DNA from: Candidatus Poribacteria bacterium
Lineage (GTDB): Bacteria; Poribacteria; WGA-4E; WGA-3G
Direction: 5' to 3'
DNA length: 64,000 bases
Assembly: GCA_965197475.1 (NCBI GenBank)
Contig: CBDANF010000003.1
Coordinates: 2,176,001-2,240,000 of the forward strand
The translations under genes were made by a program, and so were the position numbers. The notes beneath the pieces are model-generated. The model did not search any database, was not told where the DNA came from, and was given only the letters and a program-made list of their open reading frames with translations. Shown here one piece after another: positions 38,272 to 56,810 of this stretch (positions are counted from its first letter, which is position 1; every line of letters begins with the position of its first letter).

Positions 38272-38598
38272 GTGCCATTTATTGATATTAATATTCAACC
38301 TGAAAAACAAGTTTTTGATGGGGTTACAATTCGCACAATCCATGGCGAAAAACTCATGATGTCCTATGTCCATCTGCAACCGCACAGCACGGTCACAGAG
38401 CATAGCCACCTACATGAACAGATGGGCATCGTTTTAGAAGGCACTTTTGAATTGACTATTGACAGGGAATCACGAACGCTCAAAAAAGGTGATACTTACC
38501 TTATCCCCTCTCACATAAAACATAGTGCTAAGGCATTTGACACAACGGCAATAGTCCTTGATATTTTTAGCCCGCCCCGGGAAGATTATATATCTTGA
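38272..38598 (+). CDS. Cupin domain protein
   Basis: HSHLHEQ, H..HS and LDIFSPPREDY motifs. Confidence 0.88.
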   Translation: MPFIDINIQPEKQVFDGVTIRTIHGEKLMMSYVHLQPHSTVTEHSHLHEQMGIVLEGTFELTIDRESRTLKKGDTYLIPSHIKHSAKAFDTTAIVLDIFSPPREDYIS

Positions 38599-39365
38599 CA
38601 ACAAAGTTATTCTATACAATTAATGAATTAACCGAAACCCGTTTAGTCAAGGCGGGAATTAGTCTACGTTCTGGTGGCGTTAGCAAAGCACCTTACGCCT
38701 CTCTTAATTTAGCGCGTCATGTAGGAGACACCCCAACTGCGGTTTTTCAAAACCAACAAATCTTCTCTGCCCAAACCGGTATTAAAGCACTTAAATATTG
38801 TCAGCAAATTCACAGTGACACTGTTATCAATGCAGATGCTATAACAAGTTCATTTTGGAACGTTGAAAATCAAAACAATTCCCATAAAACTGGAGATGGC
38901 CTGATTTCAGCGCAGCAAGGAAATACTTTAGGTATCTTCTCTGCGGATTGTGTCCCGATATTCATCTTGGATATGGCAACACCAGCTATCGGTATAGCAC
39001 ATGCTGGTTGGCGCGGCACCTTAGCACAAATTGCTACCAAAACCGTAGCACAAATGAATGCCAATTTCGGCACTCTCACAGAAAATTGTCTTATCCATTT
39101 AGGACCCTCTATCCAGAAGTGTTGTTATAATGTAAGTCCAGATTTGATCGTTCAGTTTGTCAACCATTTTGGTAGTACCGTACATAATGGACTTCGTCTG
39201 AGTCTACAGACAGCTAACTTTCGCCAATTGGTGGATGCTGGTGTAGCACCTGATTCAATTTCAATATCGCGTTTTTGTACTGCCTGTAGCACAGATAAAT
39301 TTTATTCATATCGTGCTGAGGGAGAGCAAACAGGGAGAATGCTGTCATTTATACAACTCATATAA
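38595..39365 (+). CDS. pgeF: YfiH/PgeF family (laccase-domain) protein
   Basis: GGVS..PY.SLNL, QIHS, ADCVPI, HAGWRG, GPSI..CCY, CTAC, FYSYR, TGR. Confidence 0.9.
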   Translation: MTTKLFYTINELTETRLVKAGISLRSGGVSKAPYASLNLARHVGDTPTAVFQNQQIFSAQTGIKALKYCQQIHSDTVINADAITSSFWNVENQNNSHKTGDGLISAQQGNTLGIFSADCVPIFILDMATPAIGIAHAGWRGTLAQIATKTVAQMNANFGTLTENCLIHLGPSIQKCCYNVSPDLIVQFVNHFGSTVHNGLRLSLQTANFRQLVDAGVAPDSISISRFCTACSTDKFYSYRAEGEQTGRMLSFIQLI

Positions 39366-39404
39366 ACAAAGTAATAAAACATCTCATCAGGTTCAAGAGT
39401 GAGT

Positions 39405-39497
39405 TATACCAAATTAACGGATTAGTCTTATTTTTCTTGGCAGACAGCGCGCTTACAAAGCACGCCTACCGAGTGGGATCAAGTTAATTTGGTATTA
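39405..39497. mobile_element. MITE-like element, copy 3 (inverted relative to copy 1)
   Basis: Same TIRs; internal AGCGCGCTTACAAAGCACGCCTAC is the reverse of the copy 1 core. Confidence 0.75.
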
Positions 39498-39679
39498 GAC
39501 AATATTTTTCACGGAGGCAGCACAAAACCTAAAAATTTTTCTCCTAATACTGAACCCATCAAGCAATCTAAGTAATAAGACTTACGGCTATTGGCATTGA
39601 AACAAATTTGCATTGCCGATAAAAAAATGGTATCATTAAGTGACCGACGTTAGTCTTCGGTCTGAGACCAAAGTGAGAA

Positions 39680-39988
39680 TTGGAAATGCGTTCTTTTTTT
39701 GCATCGCTATCAATCTTAATGAGCATTATAGGTCTCATCTTTATCATGCGGGGTTGTATCCATCCCAGTACATATCAAAAGGAGTTGTCTAAGGAAACAA
39801 CGACCGCAGTTAGAGTCACGCAAGTTTATACTGAGGCTACCCATATTGTTATCGTGGGTATTGGGATTGTGAGTTTAGGAATATTGACAGCTTTTATCGG
39901 TATCCTGATCTGCACAGAAGAAGTGAAAAATCTGTATTTACGCTGCATTGATAAAGTTAAACAGAATTTAAAAGATTCACACGGTTGA
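39680..39988 (+). CDS. Small hypothetical membrane protein with two TM helices
   Basis: Two hydrophobic segments; promoter-like TTGCAT-17-TATCAT upstream. Confidence 0.55.
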   Translation: MEMRSFFASLSILMSIIGLIFIMRGCIHPSTYQKELSKETTTAVRVTQVYTEATHIVIVGIGIVSLGILTAFIGILICTEEVKNLYLRCIDKVKQNLKDSHG

Positions 39989-40094
39989 ATAACACCGCAA
40001 CTTGTAAGCGCGCTATTAGCGAGTCTCAAAATTCCAGATTTACTGTAAAAAAATCACATATTTGAGTAACGTCTCAGTGTAAGGAGAATAGCAA

Positions 40095-40823
40095 TTGAAC
40101 CAGATTGCTGAAAACCTTGCAAGTGTCAAGGAACGTATTGTGGCAGCTGCGGAAAGGAGCGGTCGCGAGGCACCCACAATTAAGCTTGTTGCTGTTACAA
40201 AAGGACGTTCAGTAAAAGAGATTCAGGCAGTTCTTGGTGTTGGACTTACCACTATCGGTGAAAACCGGGTGCAGGAAGCGCAGCAGAAATACGATCAAGT
40301 TCGATCTTTTTTCGGAACAGTACCAAACACAGCTGCAACCGATCAAACATGTGAATGGCATCTTGTCGGACACCTTCAAAGAAATAAAGTAAAGTCCGCT
40401 TTGGAAATGTTTACATTGATACATTCCGTTGATAGTTTGAGACTTTTAGCGGAGATCGCGCGCCGGGCAGAAGAACAGACAAAACAGACAGATATTTTAA
40501 TTCAAATAAATACAACTGGCGAGGCAAGCAAATTCGGTTTAAATGTGGAGGATGTGCACGACTTTATGGAAAAATCATTGGCGTATTCGGGCGCACGCAT
40601 TGTTGGCTTAATGACGATGGGTATGTTAAGTCCTTCTGCTGATGCAAACCGTCCAGCTTTTGCTTTGTTGAGAAATATTGCAGAAAAGGTAACGACTGAG
40701 AAATTCCCTGGGGTAACGATGCAATATCTCTCCATGGGAATGACAAACGATTTTGAAGTTGCAATTGAAGAAGGCGCGAACCTTGTTAGAATAGGTAGAG
40801 CAATTTTCGGAAATGTCAGTTAA
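40095..40823 (+). CDS. yggS: PLP homeostasis protein YggS
   Basis: LVAVTK, GENRVQE, WHLVGHLQRNK, IHSVDS, GLMTM, LSMGMTND, VRIG. Confidence 0.95.
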   Translation: MNQIAENLASVKERIVAAAERSGREAPTIKLVAVTKGRSVKEIQAVLGVGLTTIGENRVQEAQQKYDQVRSFFGTVPNTAATDQTCEWHLVGHLQRNKVKSALEMFTLIHSVDSLRLLAEIARRAEEQTKQTDILIQINTTGEASKFGLNVEDVHDFMEKSLAYSGARIVGLMTMGMLSPSADANRPAFALLRNIAEKVTTEKFPGVTMQYLSMGMTNDFEVAIEEGANLVRIGRAIFGNVS

Positions 40824-40903
40824 CACAAACCTATATTTATGGTGAAATACAAAAATATAGATATCAATTGGTAGGTGCTGATTGAGATACTGTTAGGAGT
40901 AAA

Positions 40904-41740
40904 ATGGTGGTAGAAAACCCAAAATTAGGTGTGATTGGCATAGGGAAAATGGGCGGTATCATCGCAAGGAGTATTGTTGACCGTCTGCTTCCAGCTGATC
41001 AGATTTGGATTACCGATCTGGACAAGGACCTTGTTACCCAACTCTGTGATGAAAAAAGTGTGAACGCTGCCTCAGACATTGAGGAACTCATCCAAAAGAC
41101 AGATATTATTCTCTGTGCCGTTCCACCTGTAGCTGTGCCGCACATCCTTCCACAAGTAGCGCAACACCTATCATCACCACAATGGCTCATTAGTATCGCA
41201 GCTGGAGTTACAACTAAAACGCTTGAATCATATTTTGAAAACCCGCCGCCGGTTGTTCGTGTGATGCCGAATATTGCGGCTTCCGCTGAAGCAGCGATCT
41301 CTGTGTTAACACCAGGCAGTGCTGCGGATGAGAAACATCTCTCCATAGCGCAAAAGATATTCAATACTTGTGGAACTACATTAGTCATGGAGGAACGCCA
41401 TCTGAATGCGGTTACAGGAGTCAGCGGCAGCGGTCCTGCTTATGTTGCGCTTTTTATAGAAGCATTAGCGGATGCGGGGGTACATGTCGGTTTACCTCGG
41501 CAGGAAGCACAAACACTCGCAACCCATACGGTTTTCGGTGCAGCAAAAATGTTGGCAGAGTCGCAGGAACACCCAGCTGTTCTCAAAAACCGAGTTACAA
41601 CACCAGGTGGAACAACAGCTGCCGGTCTCCATGTGCTGGAGCGGGGAAGTTTGCGCGCTACACTTGCTGAGGCTATACTTGCCGCTACAAAACGTGCAAA
41701 ACAACTTGACTCTGAAAATAGGAAAGGGAATATACACTAA
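40904..41740 (+). CDS. proC: Pyrroline-5-carboxylate reductase
   Basis: GIGKMG, SIAAG, RVMPN, SGSGPAY, VTTPGGTT. Confidence 0.95.
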   Translation: MVVENPKLGVIGIGKMGGIIARSIVDRLLPADQIWITDLDKDLVTQLCDEKSVNAASDIEELIQKTDIILCAVPPVAVPHILPQVAQHLSSPQWLISIAAGVTTKTLESYFENPPPVVRVMPNIAASAEAAISVLTPGSAADEKHLSIAQKIFNTCGTTLVMEERHLNAVTGVSGSGPAYVALFIEALADAGVHVGLPRQEAQTLATHTVFGAAKMLAESQEHPAVLKNRVTTPGGTTAAGLHVLERGSLRATLAEAILAATKRAKQLDSENRKGNIH

Positions 41741-42000
41741 TGCTTCTTGCCTATATTCTCAGTCGATTGCTTAATATTTATACGGTGATCGTCTTCGCGC
41801 ACGTGTTCCTTTCATGGATAGTGTTCGGCACGAAAAATTCAGTCATTCGTAGAATCTATATAGTTACAGGTCAATTGGTTGATCCGCTTCTGCAACCGAT
41901 TCGAAACCTGCTATATCCGATGACTCGAAATATTGGAATTGATCTTTCGCCAATAATTTTACTTGTGCTCTTACAAATTCTGAATTCATGGTTAATTTAG
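41740..42000 (+). CDS. yggT: YggT family membrane protein
   Basis: LSW, DPLLQPIR, IDLSPII; follows yggS-proC. Confidence 0.9.
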   Translation: MLLAYILSRLLNIYTVIVFAHVFLSWIVFGTKNSVIRRIYIVTGQLVDPLLQPIRNLLYPMTRNIGIDLSPIILLVLLQILNSWLI

Positions 42001-42035
42001 TCAGCGTACTCTTTCAGCCATGTCTATACTATATC

Positions 42036-43021
42036 GGCTCATGTAAAAAGTAAGTGCTATTTTTTCAAAGTTATGTTAGCGTGTTACCTATGGACTTTCC
42101 AATACAATCTCTCCTGGATGAAGAAAAAACTCAAGCGTGGGTGTTGGATCATTTCCACCTTCAAGGGCTGTGTTGCCCAAAATGCCAAGCGAGCGTGGCG
42201 GAGGCACGCAAGTTCCGTCCGACTGAAACAAGTGGTCTACAAGTGTATCGCTGCAAACACTGTGAGAGCATCTACAACCTCTATACCGGGACGGTCTTTG
42301 CTGGCACGCAGTTTCGTCCCTCACAGGTCGTTCTGCTTTTGCGCGGTGTCTGTCAAGGTGTTTCAAGTGCACAACTCGGGTGTGAACTGGGTCTAAGTCG
42401 TCAAACCGTTCTTTCTATAAGACGTAAACTCCAAACTTCGGCAGAGCAGATACAACCCGAAGCTGCTTTACCTGATGCTGAAGTCGAAACAGATGAGATG
42501 TTTCAAAACGCCGGTGAAAAAGGCGATAAGCACGTTGATGCTTCGGATCCGCCGCGTCGGCGTGGCAATAAACGCAGGGGACATGGGACTTATGACAATG
42601 ATCGTCCGCCTATTGTTGGGACGAAAGGTCGCGAAAGCGGTCTCCTGAGATTACGTGTTGTGCGGCACACCGATTCTGCGACGCTTTCAACACACGTTCA
42701 TCAGTGGACGTTGCCGACTTCAACGGTGTATACGGATGGTTGGCGTGGCTATAACCGTATTCAGCGCGCCCGTGAGATTGTTCTCCATAAGGATGGCGAG
42801 TGGGCAAGAGACGCAGACGGTGATGGTCTTTACGAGATCCATACAAGGACGATTGAAGGTGCCTGGACGACGCTGCGAAACTTCCTTCGTCCCTTTCGTG
42901 GCGTTCATAAAAAGTTCCTCGCCGGTTACGTCGCAATCTGTGAGTTCGTCATGAATCTAAAAGCTGTCAGTGTTGATTTTATAGCAAAACTCGTCAAAAG
43001 CACTTACTCTTGACATGAGCG
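42036..43021 (+). mobile_element. IS1595-family insertion sequence, 986 bp
   Basis: 23-bp TIRs with 20/23 identity; 8-bp TSD ACTATATC at 42028-42035 and 43022-43029. Confidence 0.93.
42090..43013 (+). CDS. IS1595-family (ISXO2-like) transposase
   Basis: Zn ribbon CPKC...CKHC, HTH, EVETDE, VYTDGW, HTRTIEGAW, RGVHKKFL. Confidence 0.92.
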   Translation: MDFPIQSLLDEEKTQAWVLDHFHLQGLCCPKCQASVAEARKFRPTETSGLQVYRCKHCESIYNLYTGTVFAGTQFRPSQVVLLLRGVCQGVSSAQLGCELGLSRQTVLSIRRKLQTSAEQIQPEAALPDAEVETDEMFQNAGEKGDKHVDASDPPRRRGNKRRGHGTYDNDRPPIVGTKGRESGLLRLRVVRHTDSATLSTHVHQWTLPTSTVYTDGWRGYNRIQRAREIVLHKDGEWARDADGDGLYEIHTRTIEGAWTTLRNFLRPFRGVHKKFLAGYVAICEFVMNLKAVSVDFIAKLVKSTYS

Positions 43022-43076
43022 ACTATATCTTGTTTCCTAATCTGATATTATCTTATAGGAAACGGCTACATGTTTT

Positions 43077-45659
43077 ATGAAAAAGGCAAATTCTCCTTCA
43101 CGGAACACAAAGACAAAACCTTCTAAAGGTCAATCTACAAAGAAAACACCTAAATCGGAAAACACCGAGAACGTTTTGCACAGTTCGCGAGAATCGGAAA
43201 TTCTCAAATTGTGGGAAACCCGAAAGGTGTACAAGGTTGATGAAAAAACAACAGAGTTGCCGACTTACGTGATCCGAGAAATGCCGACTCCTGTTCATGC
43301 ACTGAGTTTGGATACCCTCCGAAGAAAAATCTATCAAGATATTTTTCTGAAGTCTGAAATGATGCGGGGGCACACTGTTGCATATTCTCCACTTTGGGAA
43401 ACCTTTCCCTTTAGCACTGAAGCAAGCGTAATAAAGAAAAAAAGACCGACAGCTTCGCGAAACATTCTCAATTTCCGAAAACATTGTCGGCAATTATACA
43501 GAGAACATTTGGAAACACAACGGAAGAAATTACAGAAACTCGGAATTTTTGCAGATTGGACCTCTGCTGACAAAACATTAGAAGCACGCCACGAAACTAA
43601 GCTTTTTAGCTTCTTTGATAGACTACGGGACTCTAAATTTCTACGCTCTGAACTCAAACTCAGCCATTGGTGTCCGCATTGCGTATCACCACTGGAAGCT
43701 GGCAAAACTGCTACATCCGTATCTACTAGTGCTTTATATACCTATGTCAAGTTTCCATTCAACAACGGGTTTGAAGAATTTGGCAAAAATGTCTTTTTCG
43801 CTGTCCGTTTTCCACTTTCTCAATTGTGGGAGATCGCTGGCACCATCGCAATAGGCATTTATGAAAATGTTACCTTTTGGCTCACCGAATTTGAAAACCA
43901 ATATCTAATTTTTGCGGAGCCGCAGCTGAAGAAATTTGTTGATCCGAACACTAAAAAGAAAAAATATCCCGAACCTATCGCGAAATTAAAAACAACGAAG
44001 CTTAATAATTGCACTGTTTCTCACCCACTATTTTCGTTAACTGACCTGCCATTTTTTACAATATCAGATAAAGTTGTTGAAAACATTCCTGATACATCAG
44101 AAAGAAAGGAATTGATAGAAGGAATCATTCCGTTAAATCCCGCACATCATTCACTTAGTTATAATATCTTCAATGTGGTGCCTGAAATTAGGAACATCAT
44201 CAACTCTGATTTCTTTTCATCTACGTCAACAACACCTATGTTTGATGAAACCGGTAGGTTTACGGAAGATGCAGATACCCTATGCGGATTAAACTTGTTT
44301 AACGCTATTCAATTTATCACCGATGAATTGGAAGCACGCGGGTGCTTGATTAAGACGCGAAAACAAAAAATTCAACAACTTCACTGTCAACATTGCAACG
44401 GTTTATCAGTTTCTCGGCCTTATCGCCATTGGATGTTTTCCAGTACTTCTACTGATATTAGTGAGGAAGTTGATACTTCGCCAGAGTATTGGGGACATTA
44501 CCATGACGATATACGCGACCATATTCAGAATGAAGTGATGAATATCTCTGATATGCCGATTTCATCACAACGTCAGTGGGGAATACCGCTCCCAGTATTG
44601 CGATGCGATAACTGTAATCAGCTTATCTCGGATAAAAAAATCCTTCGAGCAGTTCGGAGTTCCATACGCCGTGGTTCTGAACACTGGTTCCGACTCAGTG
44701 TGGAAGAATTATTGCCTGCGGATCTGGTTTGTCCCAATTGTCATTCAAAGGATTTTCGAAAAGAGTCAACCTATATTGAAAGCTATTTTGCGAACTTACT
44801 TCATGCACTTGACACTTCCGATTTCAAGAAGTCAATAATTGAGACTTCTACCAATGTCGTTTTTCTGCCGCGAACCATTTTCTTCAAGTGGTTGGGCGAA
44901 TTGAGTGTGCTTTCTGCATCACTTCAACTCAGTCGACCATCTAAAGAGAGCCATCCTTTTAAACACTTGAAACTACACTGCATTGAAGAGGAAGTATGGG
45001 AAACTGAGGTACACGAACAATTTCTACAAAAATATCCAGCAGATATTCTAAGGTTAATCTCAATAGTTCCCGAATTACATCAAGTTCCACTTGAAGAAGA
45101 TGGAACACAGCAGCTTGAGTCGTTGATCGAAAACTACAATCAAAATTATACCCAGCTCAAAGAGATATTATTTCAAACAGTCGAATTGTTGACTGACCTT
45201 CGGAAGAATGGGAATTCTGATGCCCAAATAACTTTATCAAAAGAACCTGACGAGAATGTTTTTGACGCACTGTGGGAAACAGATGCACTTGCAGTTTCGT
45301 TAACCAAACTGCTTTTGATTGACGTTGAAGCGGCTTATCAGGAAAGGGATTTTTACGGGATGTGGCAGCTACTGTTTGATTTTTGTCAAACAGAGCTTCT
45401 ATTTTATATTCACTTATGTCGAACTGAAGTCTCATATAAGAGGTCAGAATCCACGCAAATTGCACTATCAACAATATTCAAAGTGGTTGTTCAACGTCTT
45501 GCCCCGATTTTTCCTTACTTAGCAGAAGAGATTTATGCTGACGGATTTTCTCCTTCGGTAAGTATTTTTGAAGAAAAGTGGTGTAATTTATCACCAATCA
45601 TTAGCGATAATAACACGAGAGCGCAGTGGGAATCGTTGAAAAATGTCCATCAATCCTAA
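43077..45659 (+). CDS. Isoleucyl-tRNA synthetase-like protein lacking catalytic motifs
   Basis: Colinear with IleRS (LKLW, KLGIFADW, WCPHC, YVKFP, ISSQRQWGIPLP, FRKE, YPADILRL, LAPIFPYLAEEI) and directly upstream of lspA, but no HIGH or KMSKS. Confidence 0.8.
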   Translation: MKKANSPSRNTKTKPSKGQSTKKTPKSENTENVLHSSRESEILKLWETRKVYKVDEKTTELPTYVIREMPTPVHALSLDTLRRKIYQDIFLKSEMMRGHTVAYSPLWETFPFSTEASVIKKKRPTASRNILNFRKHCRQLYREHLETQRKKLQKLGIFADWTSADKTLEARHETKLFSFFDRLRDSKFLRSELKLSHWCPHCVSPLEAGKTATSVSTSALYTYVKFPFNNGFEEFGKNVFFAVRFPLSQLWEIAGTIAIGIYENVTFWLTEFENQYLIFAEPQLKKFVDPNTKKKKYPEPIAKLKTTKLNNCTVSHPLFSLTDLPFFTISDKVVENIPDTSERKELIEGIIPLNPAHHSLSYNIFNVVPEIRNIINSDFFSSTSTTPMFDETGRFTEDADTLCGLNLFNAIQFITDELEARGCLIKTRKQKIQQLHCQHCNGLSVSRPYRHWMFSSTSTDISEEVDTSPEYWGHYHDDIRDHIQNEVMNISDMPISSQRQWGIPLPVLRCDNCNQLISDKKILRAVRSSIRRGSEHWFRLSVEELLPADLVCPNCHSKDFRKESTYIESYFANLLHALDTSDFKKSIIETSTNVVFLPRTIFFKWLGELSVLSASLQLSRPSKESHPFKHLKLHCIEEEVWETEVHEQFLQKYPADILRLISIVPELHQVPLEEDGTQQLESLIENYNQNYTQLKEILFQTVELLTDLRKNGNSDAQITLSKEPDENVFDALWETDALAVSLTKLLLIDVEAAYQERDFYGMWQLLFDFCQTELLFYIHLCRTEVSYKRSESTQIALSTIFKVVVQRLAPIFPYLAEEIYADGFSPSVSIFEEKWCNLSPIISDNNTRAQWESLKNVHQS

Positions 45660-45686: not shown

Positions 45687-46181
45687 GTGAATTCTCCGAT
45701 TCAATACTTTAAAAAGATTTTGCCATTAGTAATAGTGGCTATTCCAACATTGTTACTTGATATTTTCACCAAATTGCTTGTCCGCATGCACATTTCTATA
45801 GGGCATGGGCATGCGATAATCCCAGGTTTCTTTAATTTGCGACACCATAGAAACACAGGTGCAGCTTTCGGAATTTTTTCAGATCAACGTACATTACTCA
45901 TCATAGTAACAATCGCAGCGTTAATCTTTATTTTTGTCTATTCTTTCAGATTCCAGAATAGCAGATGGATGCAAACCGCACTCGGTTTTCTACTTGGTGG
46001 GGCAGTCGGAAACTTTATTGACCGCATCTATTTGGGCGAAGTGGTTGATTTTCTTCAGTTTGGTATAGAAAGCAAAAAACTATTTTGGCCCACTTTTAAC
46101 GTTGCTGATATCTCAGTGTGTATAGGCGCAGGGATGCTCATTGTTTACCTTTTTCGTCTTCAGAATCGAAGCGTAAATTGA
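45687..46181 (+). CDS. lspA: Lipoprotein signal peptidase II
   Basis: D..TK, NTGAAFG, GGAVGNFIDR, VVDF, FNVAD. Confidence 0.95.
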   Translation: MNSPIQYFKKILPLVIVAIPTLLLDIFTKLLVRMHISIGHGHAIIPGFFNLRHHRNTGAAFGIFSDQRTLLIIVTIAALIFIFVYSFRFQNSRWMQTALGFLLGGAVGNFIDRIYLGEVVDFLQFGIESKKLFWPTFNVADISVCIGAGMLIVYLFRLQNRSVN

Positions 46182-46393: not shown

Positions 46394-46951
46394 ATGTTGA
46401 AATTTAGAAGTGGAATGTTTGTGCTTTCTTTTGCAGTTTTCTTTGCAATCGTGCCATATTCACAAGCTCAAAACCAAACAACCCAAGAGGAAGAATACAG
46501 CGAAAGCGCGTTACGTAGGTTTGAAATAGTAACGTTAAGTGCGCTCCCATTTACAGCAGTCCATAGTTATTTAGGGGTTCGCGGCATAAAAATGATTCAG
46601 ACAAGTAAAATCGCGCCTATATTGACACCGCAGAATTATCGTGTAATGGGTATTACTGCCGTTTCGTTATCCCTATTCATCGGTTTTTGGGATTGGTTAC
46701 ATACCCGCAATGTAGACAGGTCAGCACCGAGTGTGCCAGGGCGAAAACCCCCATCACCTCCGACTGAGGATGGCATCCCTCCTGATGGAAGTATTGCGCG
46801 TGCTCCAAGTTTTGGACCACATGCGAATATGTATGGCATCTCAACATATCTTGGACAGCCTCACCGATGGTCGCAAAACACTGCGCTGAATATGTGGGCA
46901 ACCCAACCATCTGTTGGTTTAGTCATCCCACTGTTTGAAATACGATTTTAA
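46394..46951 (+). CDS. Hypothetical exported/membrane protein
   Basis: Signal peptide, hydrophobic helices, Pro-rich linker, C-terminal LVIPLFEIRF. Confidence 0.7.
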   Translation: MLKFRSGMFVLSFAVFFAIVPYSQAQNQTTQEEEYSESALRRFEIVTLSALPFTAVHSYLGVRGIKMIQTSKIAPILTPQNYRVMGITAVSLSLFIGFWDWLHTRNVDRSAPSVPGRKPPSPPTEDGIPPDGSIARAPSFGPHANMYGISTYLGQPHRWSQNTALNMWATQPSVGLVIPLFEIRF

Positions 46952-54093: not shown

Positions 54094-56730
54094 TTATGAG
54101 GATGTAAGCATTGTAAGGCTACGTGCTAACTTTTCCTGTTCAATCGACAGTCGTTCAAGCAGTTCACGCTTTTGTGCGACAACTTTTTCAGGTGCACGTT
54201 CAATAAAATTAGGATTTTCTAATGTTTTCTGTGCTGCTTCAATGTCCTTGACTATCTGCCGATGCCGTTTCGTTAGTCGTGCTTTTTCTGCTTCAAGATC
54301 GATTACTCCTGCTAATGGAATATAGATAGCGAGTTCTCCTATAACAGCCTCTGCTGAGGCAGGTGGTTTCGGCAAAGATTCAGCAATGATGATATTTTCT
54401 ACTCGCGTAAATGCAGGTAAGTATTGTTTGAGATAGGTTTTGAGCCGATTCCGTACTTCAGCATCTGGTGATTGAATGTGAACGTCCACAAATGCTCCGA
54501 TCGGAACATTTAACTCGCCGCGGATGCTTCTAATATTCTCAACAACTTCCATGACGGTTGCCATAGTGGCTTCTGCAGTTGGATTTTCTTTTGTCGGTTT
54601 TGGCCAAGGTGCTACTGTAACTGAAACTCCTACATCGTGTGGAAGTTGTTGCCAAATCTCCTCTGTTAAAAACGGCATGAGTGGGTGTAGGAGCCGCATC
54701 ATCTGTTCTAAAACATCGGTTGCAACCCACAACGCTTTTGGATCGTCAGTGGTGAGACGTTGTTTAGCGAATTCCAGATACCAATCACAGAATTCATGCC
54801 AGAGAAACGCATAGAGAGTTTGTGCTACTTCGTGGAAGCGAAAGTTCTCAAGTGCATCGGTAGCAATTTTTATGGTATGGCTCAAGCGGCTCTGTATCCA
54901 CTGAACTTCTAATGGATTTTCCCTTTCTGTTACCTCTTGTCTTGAAGGAATAGGATATTTCTCTAAATTCATGAGAATGAATCGGGCTGCGTTCCACACT
55001 TTGTTAGCAAATCGTTTACCTGCCTCAATCTGAGATTCAGGCAACGGCACATAAGGGTTCGGCGTACTGGCGTTTACAAGCGAGAATCGGAAGGCATCTG
55101 TGCCATAAGTAGCAATCGTCTCCAATGGATCAATGCTATTCCCTTTCGACTTGCTCATCTTCTGTCCCTTCTCATCCGCAACAAGACCGTGTAGGTAGAC
55201 AGTACGGAATGGAACTTCATCCATACATCCCAATCCTAACATTATCATTCTTGCTACCCAGAAAAAGAGAATGTCCCACCCTGTTACAAGCACAGATGTA
55301 GGATAAAAGGTATTCAACTCATCGGTTTCTTCGGGCCAACCCATTGTTGAGAAGGGCCACAAACCTGAACTGAACCAAGTATCTAAAACATCTTCTTCTT
55401 GATGGAAATCAGTTGCACCACACTTGCACTGTTCCGGCGTATCCATTGCGGCAGTTGCTTTTTCGCAAGCATTACAGTACCATATTGGCAGTCGATGTCC
55501 CCACCATCTTTGGCGTGAAATCGGCCACGGTTCAATATTTTCCATCCAGTGAAAAAACCGCGAGGTTTCGCGTTCGGGAATAAATGATACTTCCCCTTTT
55601 TTAGTGGCTTCTATAGCACGTTGTGCAAGCGGACGAACATTCATAAACCATTGCAGCGATATTGCAGGTTCAACTATTGTTCCACATCTATCATGATGTC
55701 CAACAGCATGTCTATGCGGCACAATTTTAACTAAATATCCTGCCTTATCCAAGTCTTCAACTACCTTTTTCCGGCAATCCCAACGCGATAAACCTACGTA
55801 GTTCTTGCCTGCATCCTTATTCATGTGTCTGTCAGCGGTGAAAATCGTACGTTGTTCAAGGTTGTGCCGCAAGCCGATTTCATAGTCGTTGGTATCGTGG
55901 GCAGGCGTAACTTTCAACGCACCTGTCCCAAATTCTGTATCCACATATTCATCAGCTATAATCGGAATCTCTCTGTCACAAAGCGGGAGGAGAACTTTTT
56001 TCCCTATTAGGTGCTGATAACGTTCATCGTCAGGATGGACTGCAACTGCAGTATCACCCAACATCGTTTCAGGACGTGTGGTTGCGATTTCAAGCACAAC
56101 ATCGCTATCTATAACAGGATAGTGGATATGGTAAAAATTACCATCAATTTCAATCGGTTCCACTTCAAGGTTACTCACTGCGGTATTGCATTGTGGACAC
56201 CAATTCACCATATAGGTATCTTGATAGATAAGTCCCTGATTGTAGAGTTTAACAAAGGCGGTACGAACTGCTTCTGACAACCCGTCATCAAGTGTAAACC
56301 GTTCACGTTTCCAATCACAAGAACATCCGAGTTGTTGAAGCTGTGAGACGATATATCCTGCGGATTCATCTTTCCACTGCCACATCCGTTCAATGAATTT
56401 TTCACGACCCAGAGCGTTTCTACTTGTGCCCTCTTCGGCAAGTTTCCGCTCCATGATAAGCTCAGTTACAATGCCCGCGTGGTCGGTTCCAGGCATCCAG
56501 AGAACGTTGTAGCCTTGCATGCGTCGCCATCGGATAAGACAATCTTGTAGTGTGTTATCAAGCGCGTGTCCAATGTGCAAGCTGCCAGTAATGTTCGGGG
56601 GTGGAATCACAATCGCATAGGGAGGTTTGTCGGAGGTGGCTTCGGCATGAAAGAAACCGTTGTTTTGCCAAAATTGGTACCATTTACCCTCAATTTCCTG
56701 AGGGTCGTAAATCTTTGGAAGACTTGTCAT
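54094..56730 (-). CDS. valS: Valyl-tRNA synthetase
   Basis: PPPNITGSLHIGH, GTDHAG, ATTRPET, GTGALKVTPAHD, DVLDTWFSS, KMSKSKGN, C-terminal coiled coil. Confidence 0.97.
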   Translation of the reverse strand: MTSLPKIYDPQEIEGKWYQFWQNNGFFHAEATSDKPPYAIVIPPPNITGSLHIGHALDNTLQDCLIRWRRMQGYNVLWMPGTDHAGIVTELIMERKLAEEGTSRNALGREKFIERMWQWKDESAGYIVSQLQQLGCSCDWKRERFTLDDGLSEAVRTAFVKLYNQGLIYQDTYMVNWCPQCNTAVSNLEVEPIEIDGNFYHIHYPVIDSDVVLEIATTRPETMLGDTAVAVHPDDERYQHLIGKKVLLPLCDREIPIIADEYVDTEFGTGALKVTPAHDTNDYEIGLRHNLEQRTIFTADRHMNKDAGKNYVGLSRWDCRKKVVEDLDKAGYLVKIVPHRHAVGHHDRCGTIVEPAISLQWFMNVRPLAQRAIEATKKGEVSFIPERETSRFFHWMENIEPWPISRQRWWGHRLPIWYCNACEKATAAMDTPEQCKCGATDFHQEEDVLDTWFSSGLWPFSTMGWPEETDELNTFYPTSVLVTGWDILFFWVARMIMLGLGCMDEVPFRTVYLHGLVADEKGQKMSKSKGNSIDPLETIATYGTDAFRFSLVNASTPNPYVPLPESQIEAGKRFANKVWNAARFILMNLEKYPIPSRQEVTERENPLEVQWIQSRLSHTIKIATDALENFRFHEVAQTLYAFLWHEFCDWYLEFAKQRLTTDDPKALWVATDVLEQMMRLLHPLMPFLTEEIWQQLPHDVGVSVTVAPWPKPTKENPTAEATMATVMEVVENIRSIRGELNVPIGAFVDVHIQSPDAEVRNRLKTYLKQYLPAFTRVENIIIAESLPKPPASAEAVIGELAIYIPLAGVIDLEAEKARLTKRHRQIVKDIEAAQKTLENPNFIERAPEKVVAQKRELLERLSIEQEKLARSLTMLTSS

Positions 56731-56786
56731 ATTCTTACCTGAAAGGAAATCTATTATACAAAATTGATCAGATTTTGAAGTTAATG

Positions 56787-56810
56787 GCGCGCTTACAAAG
56801 CGTGCCTACA
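56787..56810 (-). repeat. Free-standing GTAG REP matching the MITE core
   Basis: GCGCGCTTACAAAGCGTGCCTAC without the flanking TIRs. Confidence 0.6.

Follow-up and report, generated by a model that had tools for sequence, protein, structure and literature searches.

As a kind, non-catalytic paralogs of aminoacyl-tRNA synthetases are already known: HisZ, a HisRS-like class II protein, is the regulatory subunit of ATP phosphoribosyltransferase with HisG as its partner, and SLIMP, a SerRS-like insect mitochondrial protein (eukaryotic, class II), dimerises with its active paralog. PMC9437257 lists HisZ among such paralogs, and it also describes archaeal LeuRS-I as still making leucyl-adenylate and trypanosomatid TyrRS as a double-length pseudo-dimer. 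For isoleucyl-tRNA synthetase (IleRS) itself, PMC6331615 and PMC12945691 present SbzA as an IleRS-like aminoacyl transferase of SB-203208 biosynthesis, which is encoded in a biosynthetic cluster, keeps HYGH and KMSKS and retains weak aminoacylation. According to a 2023 survey of 379 IleRS sequences (Brkic et al., PMC10485003), no IleRS1 with a non-canonical signature had been found in nature, and a 2026 GTDB-wide IleRS survey, in which candidates were filtered by similarity to COG IleRS, mentions no relevant inactive or degenerate forms in the text of its bioRxiv version (PMC13752280); its supplements may list such forms. Here we describe a gene, referred to as pseudo-IleRS, in a 64,000-nt stretch of the sponge-associated Candidatus Poribacteria bacterium (GCA_965197475.1, contig CBDANF010000003.1, positions 2,176,001-2,240,000, forward strand; hereafter the window, in whose coordinates positions are given), which likely encodes a maintained, non-catalytic binding protein derived from IleRS1 that is kept beside a working type-2 IleRS (IleRS2).

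The pseudo-IleRS gene (43077..45659, + strand, as are all features of the protein given below) is an open reading frame of 860 amino acids with an ATG start and zero internal stops. It matches the Pfam families tRNA-synt_1 (E 2.5e-26, aa 42-634) and Anticodon_1 (E 7.1e-11, aa 740-857), and its best NCBIfam match by hmmscan is TIGR00392 ileS, with 180.7 bits against a cut-off of 621.4, which is below the threshold for a functional IleRS; a search of the genome with the same model gave 147.8 plus 35.3 bits at this locus. A phmmer search against the PDB returned IleRS1 8c9e/8c9f at E values of about 3e-30 and IleRS2 at 3e-15, and the correspondence of motifs was read from the residue-by-residue phmmer alignment to 8c9e/8c9f together with multiple alignments. 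In the phmmer alignment, the HIGH position (HMGH in 8c9e) reads SLDT (aa 77-80, 43305..43316), the GWD(T/C)HGLP position (GWDTHGLP) reads LWETFPFS (aa 106-113, 43392..43415) and the KMSKS position reads CIEEE (aa 635-639, 44979..44993), while the multiple alignments place YFANL at the WFDSG position and LPRTIFFKWL at the EGxDQxRGWF position, with a KMSKS loop that is about 9 residues shorter than in IleRS1. The editing site is altered in the same manner, as the T-rich peptide WTTTPWT is replaced by FPLSQLWE (aa 245-252, 43809..43832, alignment), and the GTGxVHxAPxHGxxD position reads EGIIPLNPAHHSLS (aa 348-361, 44118..44159, multiple alignments), in which the G, P and H are kept (G349, P355 and H357, conserved in relatives) and the editing Asp is gone. 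With all ATP- and carboxylate-binding motifs gone, formation of Ile-AMP by pseudo-IleRS is unlikely, and so is editing, given the loss of both the T-rich peptide and the Asp.

Other parts of the synthetase body are retained. The block ISSQRQWGIPLP (aa 495-506, 44559..44594, alignment) pairs with ISRQRAWGVPIP of IleRS1 8c9e/8c9f, and there are four CxxC pairs, starting at aa 199, 437, 510 and 552. Of these, zinc knuckle 1a (CPHC, aa 199-202, 43671..43682) pairs with knuckle 1b (CQHC, aa 437-440, 44385..44396) at the base of the CP1/editing insertion, and the second zinc module CDNC...CPNC (aa 510-555, 44604..44741) falls within aa 495-600, where conservation of the protein is highest. The protein starts with a basic disordered tail (aa 1-37, 43077..43187, from composition and predicted local distance difference test scores, pLDDT), which is specific to the family of Poribacteria to which the window's genome belongs (f1) and absent from the orthologs of families f3 and f4; there are 11 K+R in the first 45 amino acids of the query and 7-15 in 15 sampled family members. 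The composition of the tail is conserved and its sequence is variable.

We obtained an AlphaFold2 model from a 100-sequence alignment, which has a mean pLDDT of 85.8 and a predicted TM score (pTM) of 0.86, with pLDDT below 50 only at aa 1-32, modelled as disordered, and at aa 714-717. Foldseek searches of the PDB with this model gave IleRS1 as top matches (8c9f, 8c9e, 1qu3 and the H. pylori IleRS, E 1e-35 to 1e-31, TM about 0.6), followed by IleRS2, yeast IleRS and ValRS; ranks 1-18 and 20 are IleRS and rank 19 is ValRS (E 1e-35 to 1e-25). Based on the model scores and the IleRS matches, a complete IleRS body is predicted to fold in pseudo-IleRS.

With regard to the anticodon, the helical ARD1 domain (aa 666-860, 45072..45656, Pfam Anticodon_1) has kept its anticodon-binding type of fold and not the reading residues, and the C-terminus stops about 110-120 aa before that of IleRS1, where ARD2 and a zinc-binding domain would follow; the remaining tail is without CxxC. 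PMC13752280 reports by mutagenesis that N647, F651, S713 and R721 in ARD1 of PmIleRS2 matter for anticodon recognition, and these positions were transferred to other sequences through the PDB alignment. The equivalents of N647, F651, S713 and R721 are kept in 21, 24, 23 and 24 of the 24 IleRS1-clade reference rows, respectively, and in 9/9 IleRS2 rows each, versus 2, 4, 2 and 7 of the 20 pseudo-IleRS rows. The reference rows are called IleRS1-clade and not catalytic IleRS1, as four of them (P0165, P0167, P0171 and P0182) are partly degenerate in catalytic motifs. In the query the N, F/Y and S are gone, and of the four positions just the last is still basic (R); the two pseudo-IleRS rows that have an Asn equivalent to N647 are both from the basal lineage. 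As the ARD1 contacts have not been conserved and there is no C-terminal zinc domain, pseudo-IleRS is unlikely to read the tRNA-Ile anticodon in the canonical way.

These results bear out most of the initial annotation, which had described an uninterrupted IleRS-like frame at a canonical ileS-lspA locus that has lost HIGH, GWDCHGLP, KMSKS and the editing motifs, has four CxxC knuckles and carries a Lys-rich N-terminal tail, and had contrasted it with the valS gene of the window, which indeed has HIGH, KMSKS, TTRPET and GTG (open frame at about 54097-56805, minus strand). Its statement that the anticodon-binding bundle is retained holds for the fold and fails for the anticodon-reading residues. 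Compared with IleRS1 as represented by 8C9E/8C9F of Priestia megaterium and 1FFY/1QU2 of Staphylococcus aureus, pseudo-IleRS has the same domain order (HUP, CP1, editing, CP2, ARD1), the best sequence and fold matches, the same ileS-lspA position and a shared clade, and its basal relatives keep the C-terminal zinc domain; it differs from IleRS1 by the absence of HIGH, KMSKS, WFDSG, DQxRGW, the T-rich peptide, the editing Asp, the anticodon contacts and ARD2 with the zinc domain, and by the added basic tail.

An intact second ileS, possibly of type 2, had been predicted to lie elsewhere, and was found. Searching the 5.7-Mb assembly to which the window belongs (G000) with TIGR00392 gave one match above the cut-off (972.3 bits, C3:3693810-3696320, minus strand), which corresponds to an IleRS2 gene of 1052 aa (G000:C3:3693198-3696350, minus strand) at 1.5 Mb from pseudo-IleRS. 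The encoded protein carries GPPFANAPPGVHHV, GVHH, WDTHGLP, WTTTPWT and KMSKS, and scores more than 1000 bits against the Priestia megaterium IleRS2 structures. As this full-score, motif-intact IleRS2 is present in the same genome, isoleucylation in this organism is, judging by its gene complement, done by the type-2 enzyme. A type-2 IleRS is likewise found in 22/24 same-genus genomes and 16/16 examined genomes of other families, and every single-contig genome of the set of relatives holds a separate catalytic IleRS2. Five out of five distant genomes combine a full-score IleRS2 (920-997 bits) with a sub-threshold IleRS1-like gene (110-445 bits). Both GVHH and KMSKS are each present in 33/35 Poribacteria IleRS2 loci examined; in the basal genome G041 the IleRS2 signature reads TIAH. 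The swapped GXHH/GVHH motif is linked to mupirocin hyper-resistance in IleRS2, as stated in PMC10485003, and the presence of GVHH in the Poribacteria IleRS2 is a hint that IleRS1 may have been replaced under the influence of an antibiotic directed at IleRS.

The IleRS2 enzymes of genera g5, g6 and g3 are only 39-47% identical to that of the window's genome and longer (1125-1194-aa frames; L068 and places in G026, G028, G029, G031, G032, G034, G035, G037, G038 and G040), with those of other families being 64-94% identical to it, and they may represent a second xenologous replacement within the phylum. We also considered whether loss of pseudo-IleRS is tied to the type of IleRS2, and rejected this as there is no clean pattern across lineages: g6 has the divergent IleRS2 and keeps pseudo-IleRS, g2 has the common IleRS2 and is without it.

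The degenerate state of pseudo-IleRS is shared by its relatives. A word search of 5.8 billion proteins gave 144 matches, of which the 120 listed share 38-74% identity with the query; named proteins among the matches listed are from Candidatus Poribacteria, and the family proteins are labelled 'class I tRNA ligase family protein', 'hypothetical protein' or 'isoleucyl-tRNA synthetase'. One protein (P0268, in the cluster of P0131) is labelled 'Deltaproteobacteria bacterium' in nr, which may reflect mis-binning or an occurrence of the gene beyond the Poribacteria. Regular expressions for HxGH (in the first 200 aa), K[MLIF]SKS, W[TS]TT[PT]W[TS] and DQxRGW matched 0/122 family proteins, HxGH, KMSKS, the T-rich peptide or DQxRGW were found in 0/20 phylum-wide representatives, and HxGH or KMSKS in 0/30 orthologous loci. 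These expressions are strict, as only 7 of the 24 IleRS1-clade rows used as positive control have all four motifs, which is caused by many HxGT/HxGQ or KISKS-type variants and by the four degenerate rows. The replacement sequences are themselves conserved (REMPTPV..L..DTLRRK, WET[FY]P, LWEIA, G[IV]IPLNPAHH and QPFKxLKL). Over 117 full-length proteins (38-100% identical to the query), 141/860 positions are at least 98% invariant, including W107, E108, T109 and P111, 17 polar residues between aa 519 and 585, and the eight zinc-knuckle cysteines, which are present in 117/117. In two orthologous loci (L035 and L036, of G027 and G030, family f4, genus g4) the cysteines of knuckle pair 1 are mostly gone (WCYNRN/YCSMSK) and pair 2 is kept.

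Pseudo-IleRS is under clear purifying selection. The ratio of nonsynonymous to synonymous substitution rates (dN/dS), calculated pairwise by the Nei-Gojobori method on codon alignments for pairs with dS of 0.05-1.0, has a median of 0.175 for pseudo-IleRS (35 pairs, range 0.136-0.387), compared with 0.053 for IleRS2 of the same genomes (29 pairs), 0.096 for lspA (33 pairs) and 0.086 for proC (34 pairs). By protein part, with values pooled over ten non-overlapping genome pairs, dN/dS is lowest in aa 446-600 (CP2/second zinc module, 0.137), followed by HUP-C (0.15), HUP-N (0.16) and CP1 plus editing domain (0.17), and is higher in ARD1 (0.32) and in the basic tail, which is the loosest part (0.54); constraint is strongest on the former catalytic body and weak on the anticodon domain. 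Within the genus, identity to the query is 52-73% for pseudo-IleRS and 84-94% for IleRS2. The frame is open in 25/25 same-genus genomes (24 relatives and its own, 52-100% identity), with no internal stops. Recent decay, which the initial annotation had named as the finding that would speak against a maintained protein, is excluded because the relatives hold the same degenerate gene at this place and dN/dS is far below 1, and its proposal of selection for a non-catalytic role is supported by the same results, with the proviso that binding of tRNA-Ile through canonical anticodon reading is disfavoured. The combination of synthetase homology, lost catalytic residues, a working synthetase of the same specificity and purifying selection would make this a pseudo-synthetase, and very probably not a pseudogene: we regard it as a folded, zinc-binding, full-length protein which has been kept by purifying selection since before the Poribacteria diversified.

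A scan of the phylum gave a match at E <= 1e-20 in 154/176 Poribacteria genomes, without internal stops among the matches listed (24 weaker matches lie beyond these). Per family, leaving out G000, the gene was found in 111/111 genomes of f1, 25/29 of f3, 6/7 of f4, 7/8 of f8 and 0/11 of f2, and in 0/4 genomes of genus g3. In f2 the site is empty, with yggT and lspA about 200 bp apart, and in g3 the slot holds an unrelated 111-122-aa open reading frame between these two genes; pseudo-IleRS is cleanly deleted in a few lineages.

Its origin was assessed with a quick IQ-TREE phylogeny (59 rows, 928 columns, LG+C20+F+G4 by posterior mean site frequencies, Shimodaira-Hasegawa-like approximate likelihood ratio test (SH-aLRT) support only, rooted on the window's ValRS). 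The 20 pseudo-IleRS rows, which come from all sampled Poribacteria lineages, form one clade (SH-aLRT 100) that is nested in IleRS1 (99), with IleRS2 separate (100), and its internal order is roughly taxonomic, from f10 at the base through f8 and f3/f4 to f1. In the basal lineage G041/P0136 the protein reaches 445 bits on TIGR00392 and keeps an IleRS1-type C-terminal CxxC...CxxC domain (CERC...CHKC) and an RIRNxFRY helix, and is already without HIGH and KMSKS; f8 members have a Cys-free C-terminal remnant, and those of f1, f3 and f4 stop at ARD1. The basal C-terminal domain, this graded C-terminal loss and the co-residence with IleRS2 in the five distant genomes independently support an IleRS1 origin. 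We infer a single loss of catalysis that preceded the divergence of the sampled Poribacteria, at a time when they already had IleRS2, and a subsequent stepwise erosion of the C-terminus. Several other proteins of the IleRS1 clade (P0141, P0145, P0150, P0151, P0153, P0165, P0167, P0171 and P0182) have partly degenerate HIGH and/or KMSKS motifs, with GWDxHG, DQxRGW and the anticodon residues mostly intact; the named ones are from Bacillota and Armatimonadota metagenome-assembled genomes. As the tree separates these from the Poribacteria clade, independent degeneration of IleRS1 may have taken place in other lineages.

The genomic position is consistent with this origin. The lspA gene (signal peptidase II, 45687..46181, + strand, Peptidase_A8, E 8.7e-41) starts after a gap of 27 nt on the same strand as pseudo-IleRS, and is likewise placed in related loci. 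On the 5' side are yggT, the upstream neighbour in the ancestral arrangement (41740..42000, + strand, Pfam YGGT, E 1.6e-15), and proC (pyrroline-5-carboxylate reductase, 40904..41740, + strand, Pfam), at whose relative place most related loci have a 270-300-aa open reading frame. The order proC-yggT-X-lspA is common to the flanks of related loci, and both this order and the lspA placement extend to the basal genome G041. Upstream of yggT, the region 38595-41740 holds a yfiH-like gene (Cu-oxidase_4), a yggS-like gene (Ala_racemase_N) and proC; together with yggT we take these to be the tail of the division-cluster-associated block which precedes ileS in Bacillus, and this would fit the open reading frame being the positional ortholog of ileS1.

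Taken together, the gene is very probably the positional and phylogenetic descendant of an ancestral IleRS1, still in its proC-yggT-ileS-lspA slot, that no longer forms Ile-AMP, transfers isoleucine, edits or reads the anticodon of tRNA-Ile canonically, with a separate GVHH type-2 IleRS carrying out isoleucylation. Constraint is strongest on the Rossmann (HUP) core, which has been remodelled, on the zinc modules of CP1/CP2 and on the body of the editing domain, and not on the anticodon domain, and family f1 has added a basic disordered tail. In a real IleRS, the HUP, zinc-module and editing side faces the acceptor arm of the tRNA. The role that we favour, tentatively, is that of a non-catalytic RNA-binding protein of a regulatory or chaperone type, in which this side would bind the acceptor arm of a tRNA, or some other structured RNA, with no charging taking place.

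A number of observations weigh against this interpretation. As for the RNA-binding role, the four anticodon contacts are kept in few of the pseudo-IleRS rows (2, 4, 2 and 7 of 20), the C-terminal zinc domain is gone, and the anticodon domain is a weakly constrained part of the globular body (ARD1 dN/dS 0.32), which we counted against reading of the tRNA-Ile anticodon. Per-domain net charge is the same as in real IleRS, and comparison of net charge and pI per domain with IleRS1 and IleRS2 showed no distinctive basic surface beyond the N-terminal tail; this charge analysis did not discriminate between RNA-binding, scaffold, enzyme and sensor roles. More generally, no partner or ligand of pseudo-IleRS emerged, and it is under about threefold weaker constraint than IleRS2. 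Some lineages can do without the gene, as it was not found in the 11 f2 and 4 g3 genomes. The tree method was quick and the pseudo-IleRS rows are long branches, so that their monophyly could be inflated. Transcription is indicated by one 193-nt contig of a sponge metatranscriptome (43254-43446, depth 2.9, zero differences from the window), which is the sole, weak evidence for expression and could derive from DNA; this metatranscriptome held 6% of the sampled words and had no contig over the rest of the gene, and such contigs give neither expression level nor strand, with uncovered parts being uninformative. Finally, protein and TIGR00392 searches found no catalytic ileS in the same-genus genomes G004 (99% complete, 120 contigs) and G013 (81% complete, 140 contigs), both of which carry a pseudo-IleRS as degenerate as the others; the absent ileS is probably an assembly gap.

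Somewhat unlikely, but next in probability, is that pseudo-IleRS serves as a protein-protein scaffold or regulator, which binds for example IleRS2 or a product of the envelope/division-linked block and tunes its activity or localisation, in the manner of numerous other pseudoenzymes. Purifying selection over the whole globular body, the many invariant polar residues (with the 17 at aa 519-585), the loss of the anticodon-reading residues and the position close between yggT and lspA, in the same orientation throughout the phylum, speak for such a protein. Against it, no candidate partner emerged, lineages without the gene have unchanged copies of the downstream open reading frame and of lspA, and IleRS is not known as an oligomer.

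We consider it unlikely that the remodelled Rossmann or editing pocket supports another chemistry and that pseudo-IleRS is a new enzyme, such as an SbzA-like transferase or a hydrolase. The invariant replacements R67, E68 and P70, W107, E108, T109 and P111, H357, and R499 and Q500 would be compatible with a new active site, and the IleRS-like transferase SbzA provides a precedent (PMC6331615 and PMC12945691), being like pseudo-IleRS a second IleRS homolog beside a housekeeping IleRS which is used otherwise than for translational charging. SbzA, however, keeps HYGH and KMSKS and is found in a biosynthetic cluster, whereas pseudo-IleRS has lost both motifs and part of the loop, is surrounded by housekeeping genes (yfiH-like, yggS, proC, yggT, lspA, fmt, rpe and rsmE) and does not conserve the contacts to the tRNA-Ile anticodon.

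A more speculative suggestion, to which we give little credence, is that pseudo-IleRS is a natural separation-of-function allele: IleRS1 would have had a second, non-translational job tied to the ancient envelope/division block yggS-proC-yggT-ileS-lspA, and after a GVHH IleRS2 took over aminoacylation, only this second job would have kept the old gene. If so, pseudo-IleRS would isolate a moonlighting function that has gone unrecognised in a universal enzyme, and would explain the linkage of ileS and lspA across bacteria, and the partly degenerate IleRS1 copies of Bacillota and Armatimonadota would be earlier stages of the same path.

It is rather improbable that the protein is a sensor of a small, isoleucine-like ligand, using a surviving hydrophobic amino-acid pocket without activation. 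The residues of the T. thermophilus isoleucine pocket Pro46, Asp85, Trp518 and Trp558 presumably correspond, by motif alignment, to P70, E108, Y570 and W605 of the query, of which P70, E108 and W605 are at least 98% invariant. The mapping rests on structural literature for these pocket roles, the polar Glu, Asp and Gln of EGxDQxRGW have become L, T and I, and there is no known output domain or partner.

That pseudo-IleRS is still a working IleRS with non-canonical catalytic residues is highly improbable, in spite of the two same-genus assemblies (G004 and G013) in which no other ileS was found and of the tolerance of IleRS2 for a swapped GXHH signature reported in PMC10485003; the same paper reports that even this swap abolishes the activity of IleRS1, and pseudo-IleRS retains none of HIGH, KMSKS (whose loop is shortened), WFDSG, DQxRGW and the editing motifs, its 180.7 bits are far below the 621.4 of the cut-off, and every single-contig relative genome holds a separate catalytic IleRS2. 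The least probable explanation, a recently inactivated gene that drifts with its frame open by chance or because its translation helps lspA expression, has in its favour that dN/dS is above that of the neighbours, that the gene is deleted in some lineages and that an insertion sequence (IS) lies just upstream in this genome, and it is refuted by the frames being open in 25/25 same-genus orthologs and in distant families, by dN/dS of 0.14-0.39 instead of 1 and by the 141 invariant positions, next to the confident full-length predicted fold.

Returning to a maintained, non-catalytic IleRS1 derivative, pseudo-IleRS resembles HisZ as a synthetase paralog that would have lost aminoacylation and be kept for a non-catalytic role, and resembles SLIMP as a full-length synthetase paralog without aminoacylation that is still maintained. 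It differs from HisZ in being a class Ia protein of full length including the editing domain, and HisZ has a known partner and pathway. Archaeal LeuRS-I and trypanosomatid TyrRS are, according to PMC9437257, duplicated synthetase bodies in which one copy is minus part of the canonical activity, but neither is a stand-alone IleRS without all catalytic centres. Our literature searches, mostly at the level of titles and abstracts, found no description of a dead, stand-alone, full-length and conserved IleRS, and no paper pairing Poribacteria with isoleucyl-tRNA synthetase. New here, judged by motif content, appears to be a phylum-wide, full-length IleRS1 without synthesis, editing and anticodon reading that is kept beside a GVHH IleRS2. 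It would provide a concrete case for the fate of an essential enzyme that a resistant xenolog has displaced, namely that it is kept and not lost, and we put the span of retention of the dead copy at a divergence worth hundreds of millions of substitutions. The labels 'isoleucyl-tRNA synthetase' and 'class I tRNA ligase family protein' could mislead metabolic reconstructions of sponge symbionts. Pseudo-IleRS lends itself to expression and to direct assays for binding of RNA, ligands and partners.

An IS1595-family insertion of about 990 bp (about 42030-43027, + strand, DDE_Tnp_IS1595), which was not mentioned in the earlier description of the locus, is located between yggT and pseudo-IleRS, 54 bp upstream of the pseudo-IleRS start. 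It has 32-nt imperfect terminal inverted repeats, and among the copies in its own genome 32 are 99-100% identical and 4 are about 71% identical. In a DNA run, there is a jump in depth with loose contig ends at 42033 and 43022, and the depth of the IS1595 contig is about 50-fold that of the flanks; IS1595 contigs are also found in the sponge metatranscriptome. Among 25 same-genus loci, only this genome has the element at the yggT/pseudo-IleRS site, with the other 24 being without it. This looks like a recent, active expansion, and the insertion may alter transcription of pseudo-IleRS in this particular genome.

An Rfam scan of the whole window gave nothing at gathering thresholds, and no T-box or leader was recognised. 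Downstream of lspA is an open reading frame of 185 aa (46394-46951, + strand) without Pfam matches, which has a hydrophobic N-terminal region and a proline-rich middle, and related loci, with or without pseudo-IleRS, likewise have an open reading frame of 172-216 aa following lspA.

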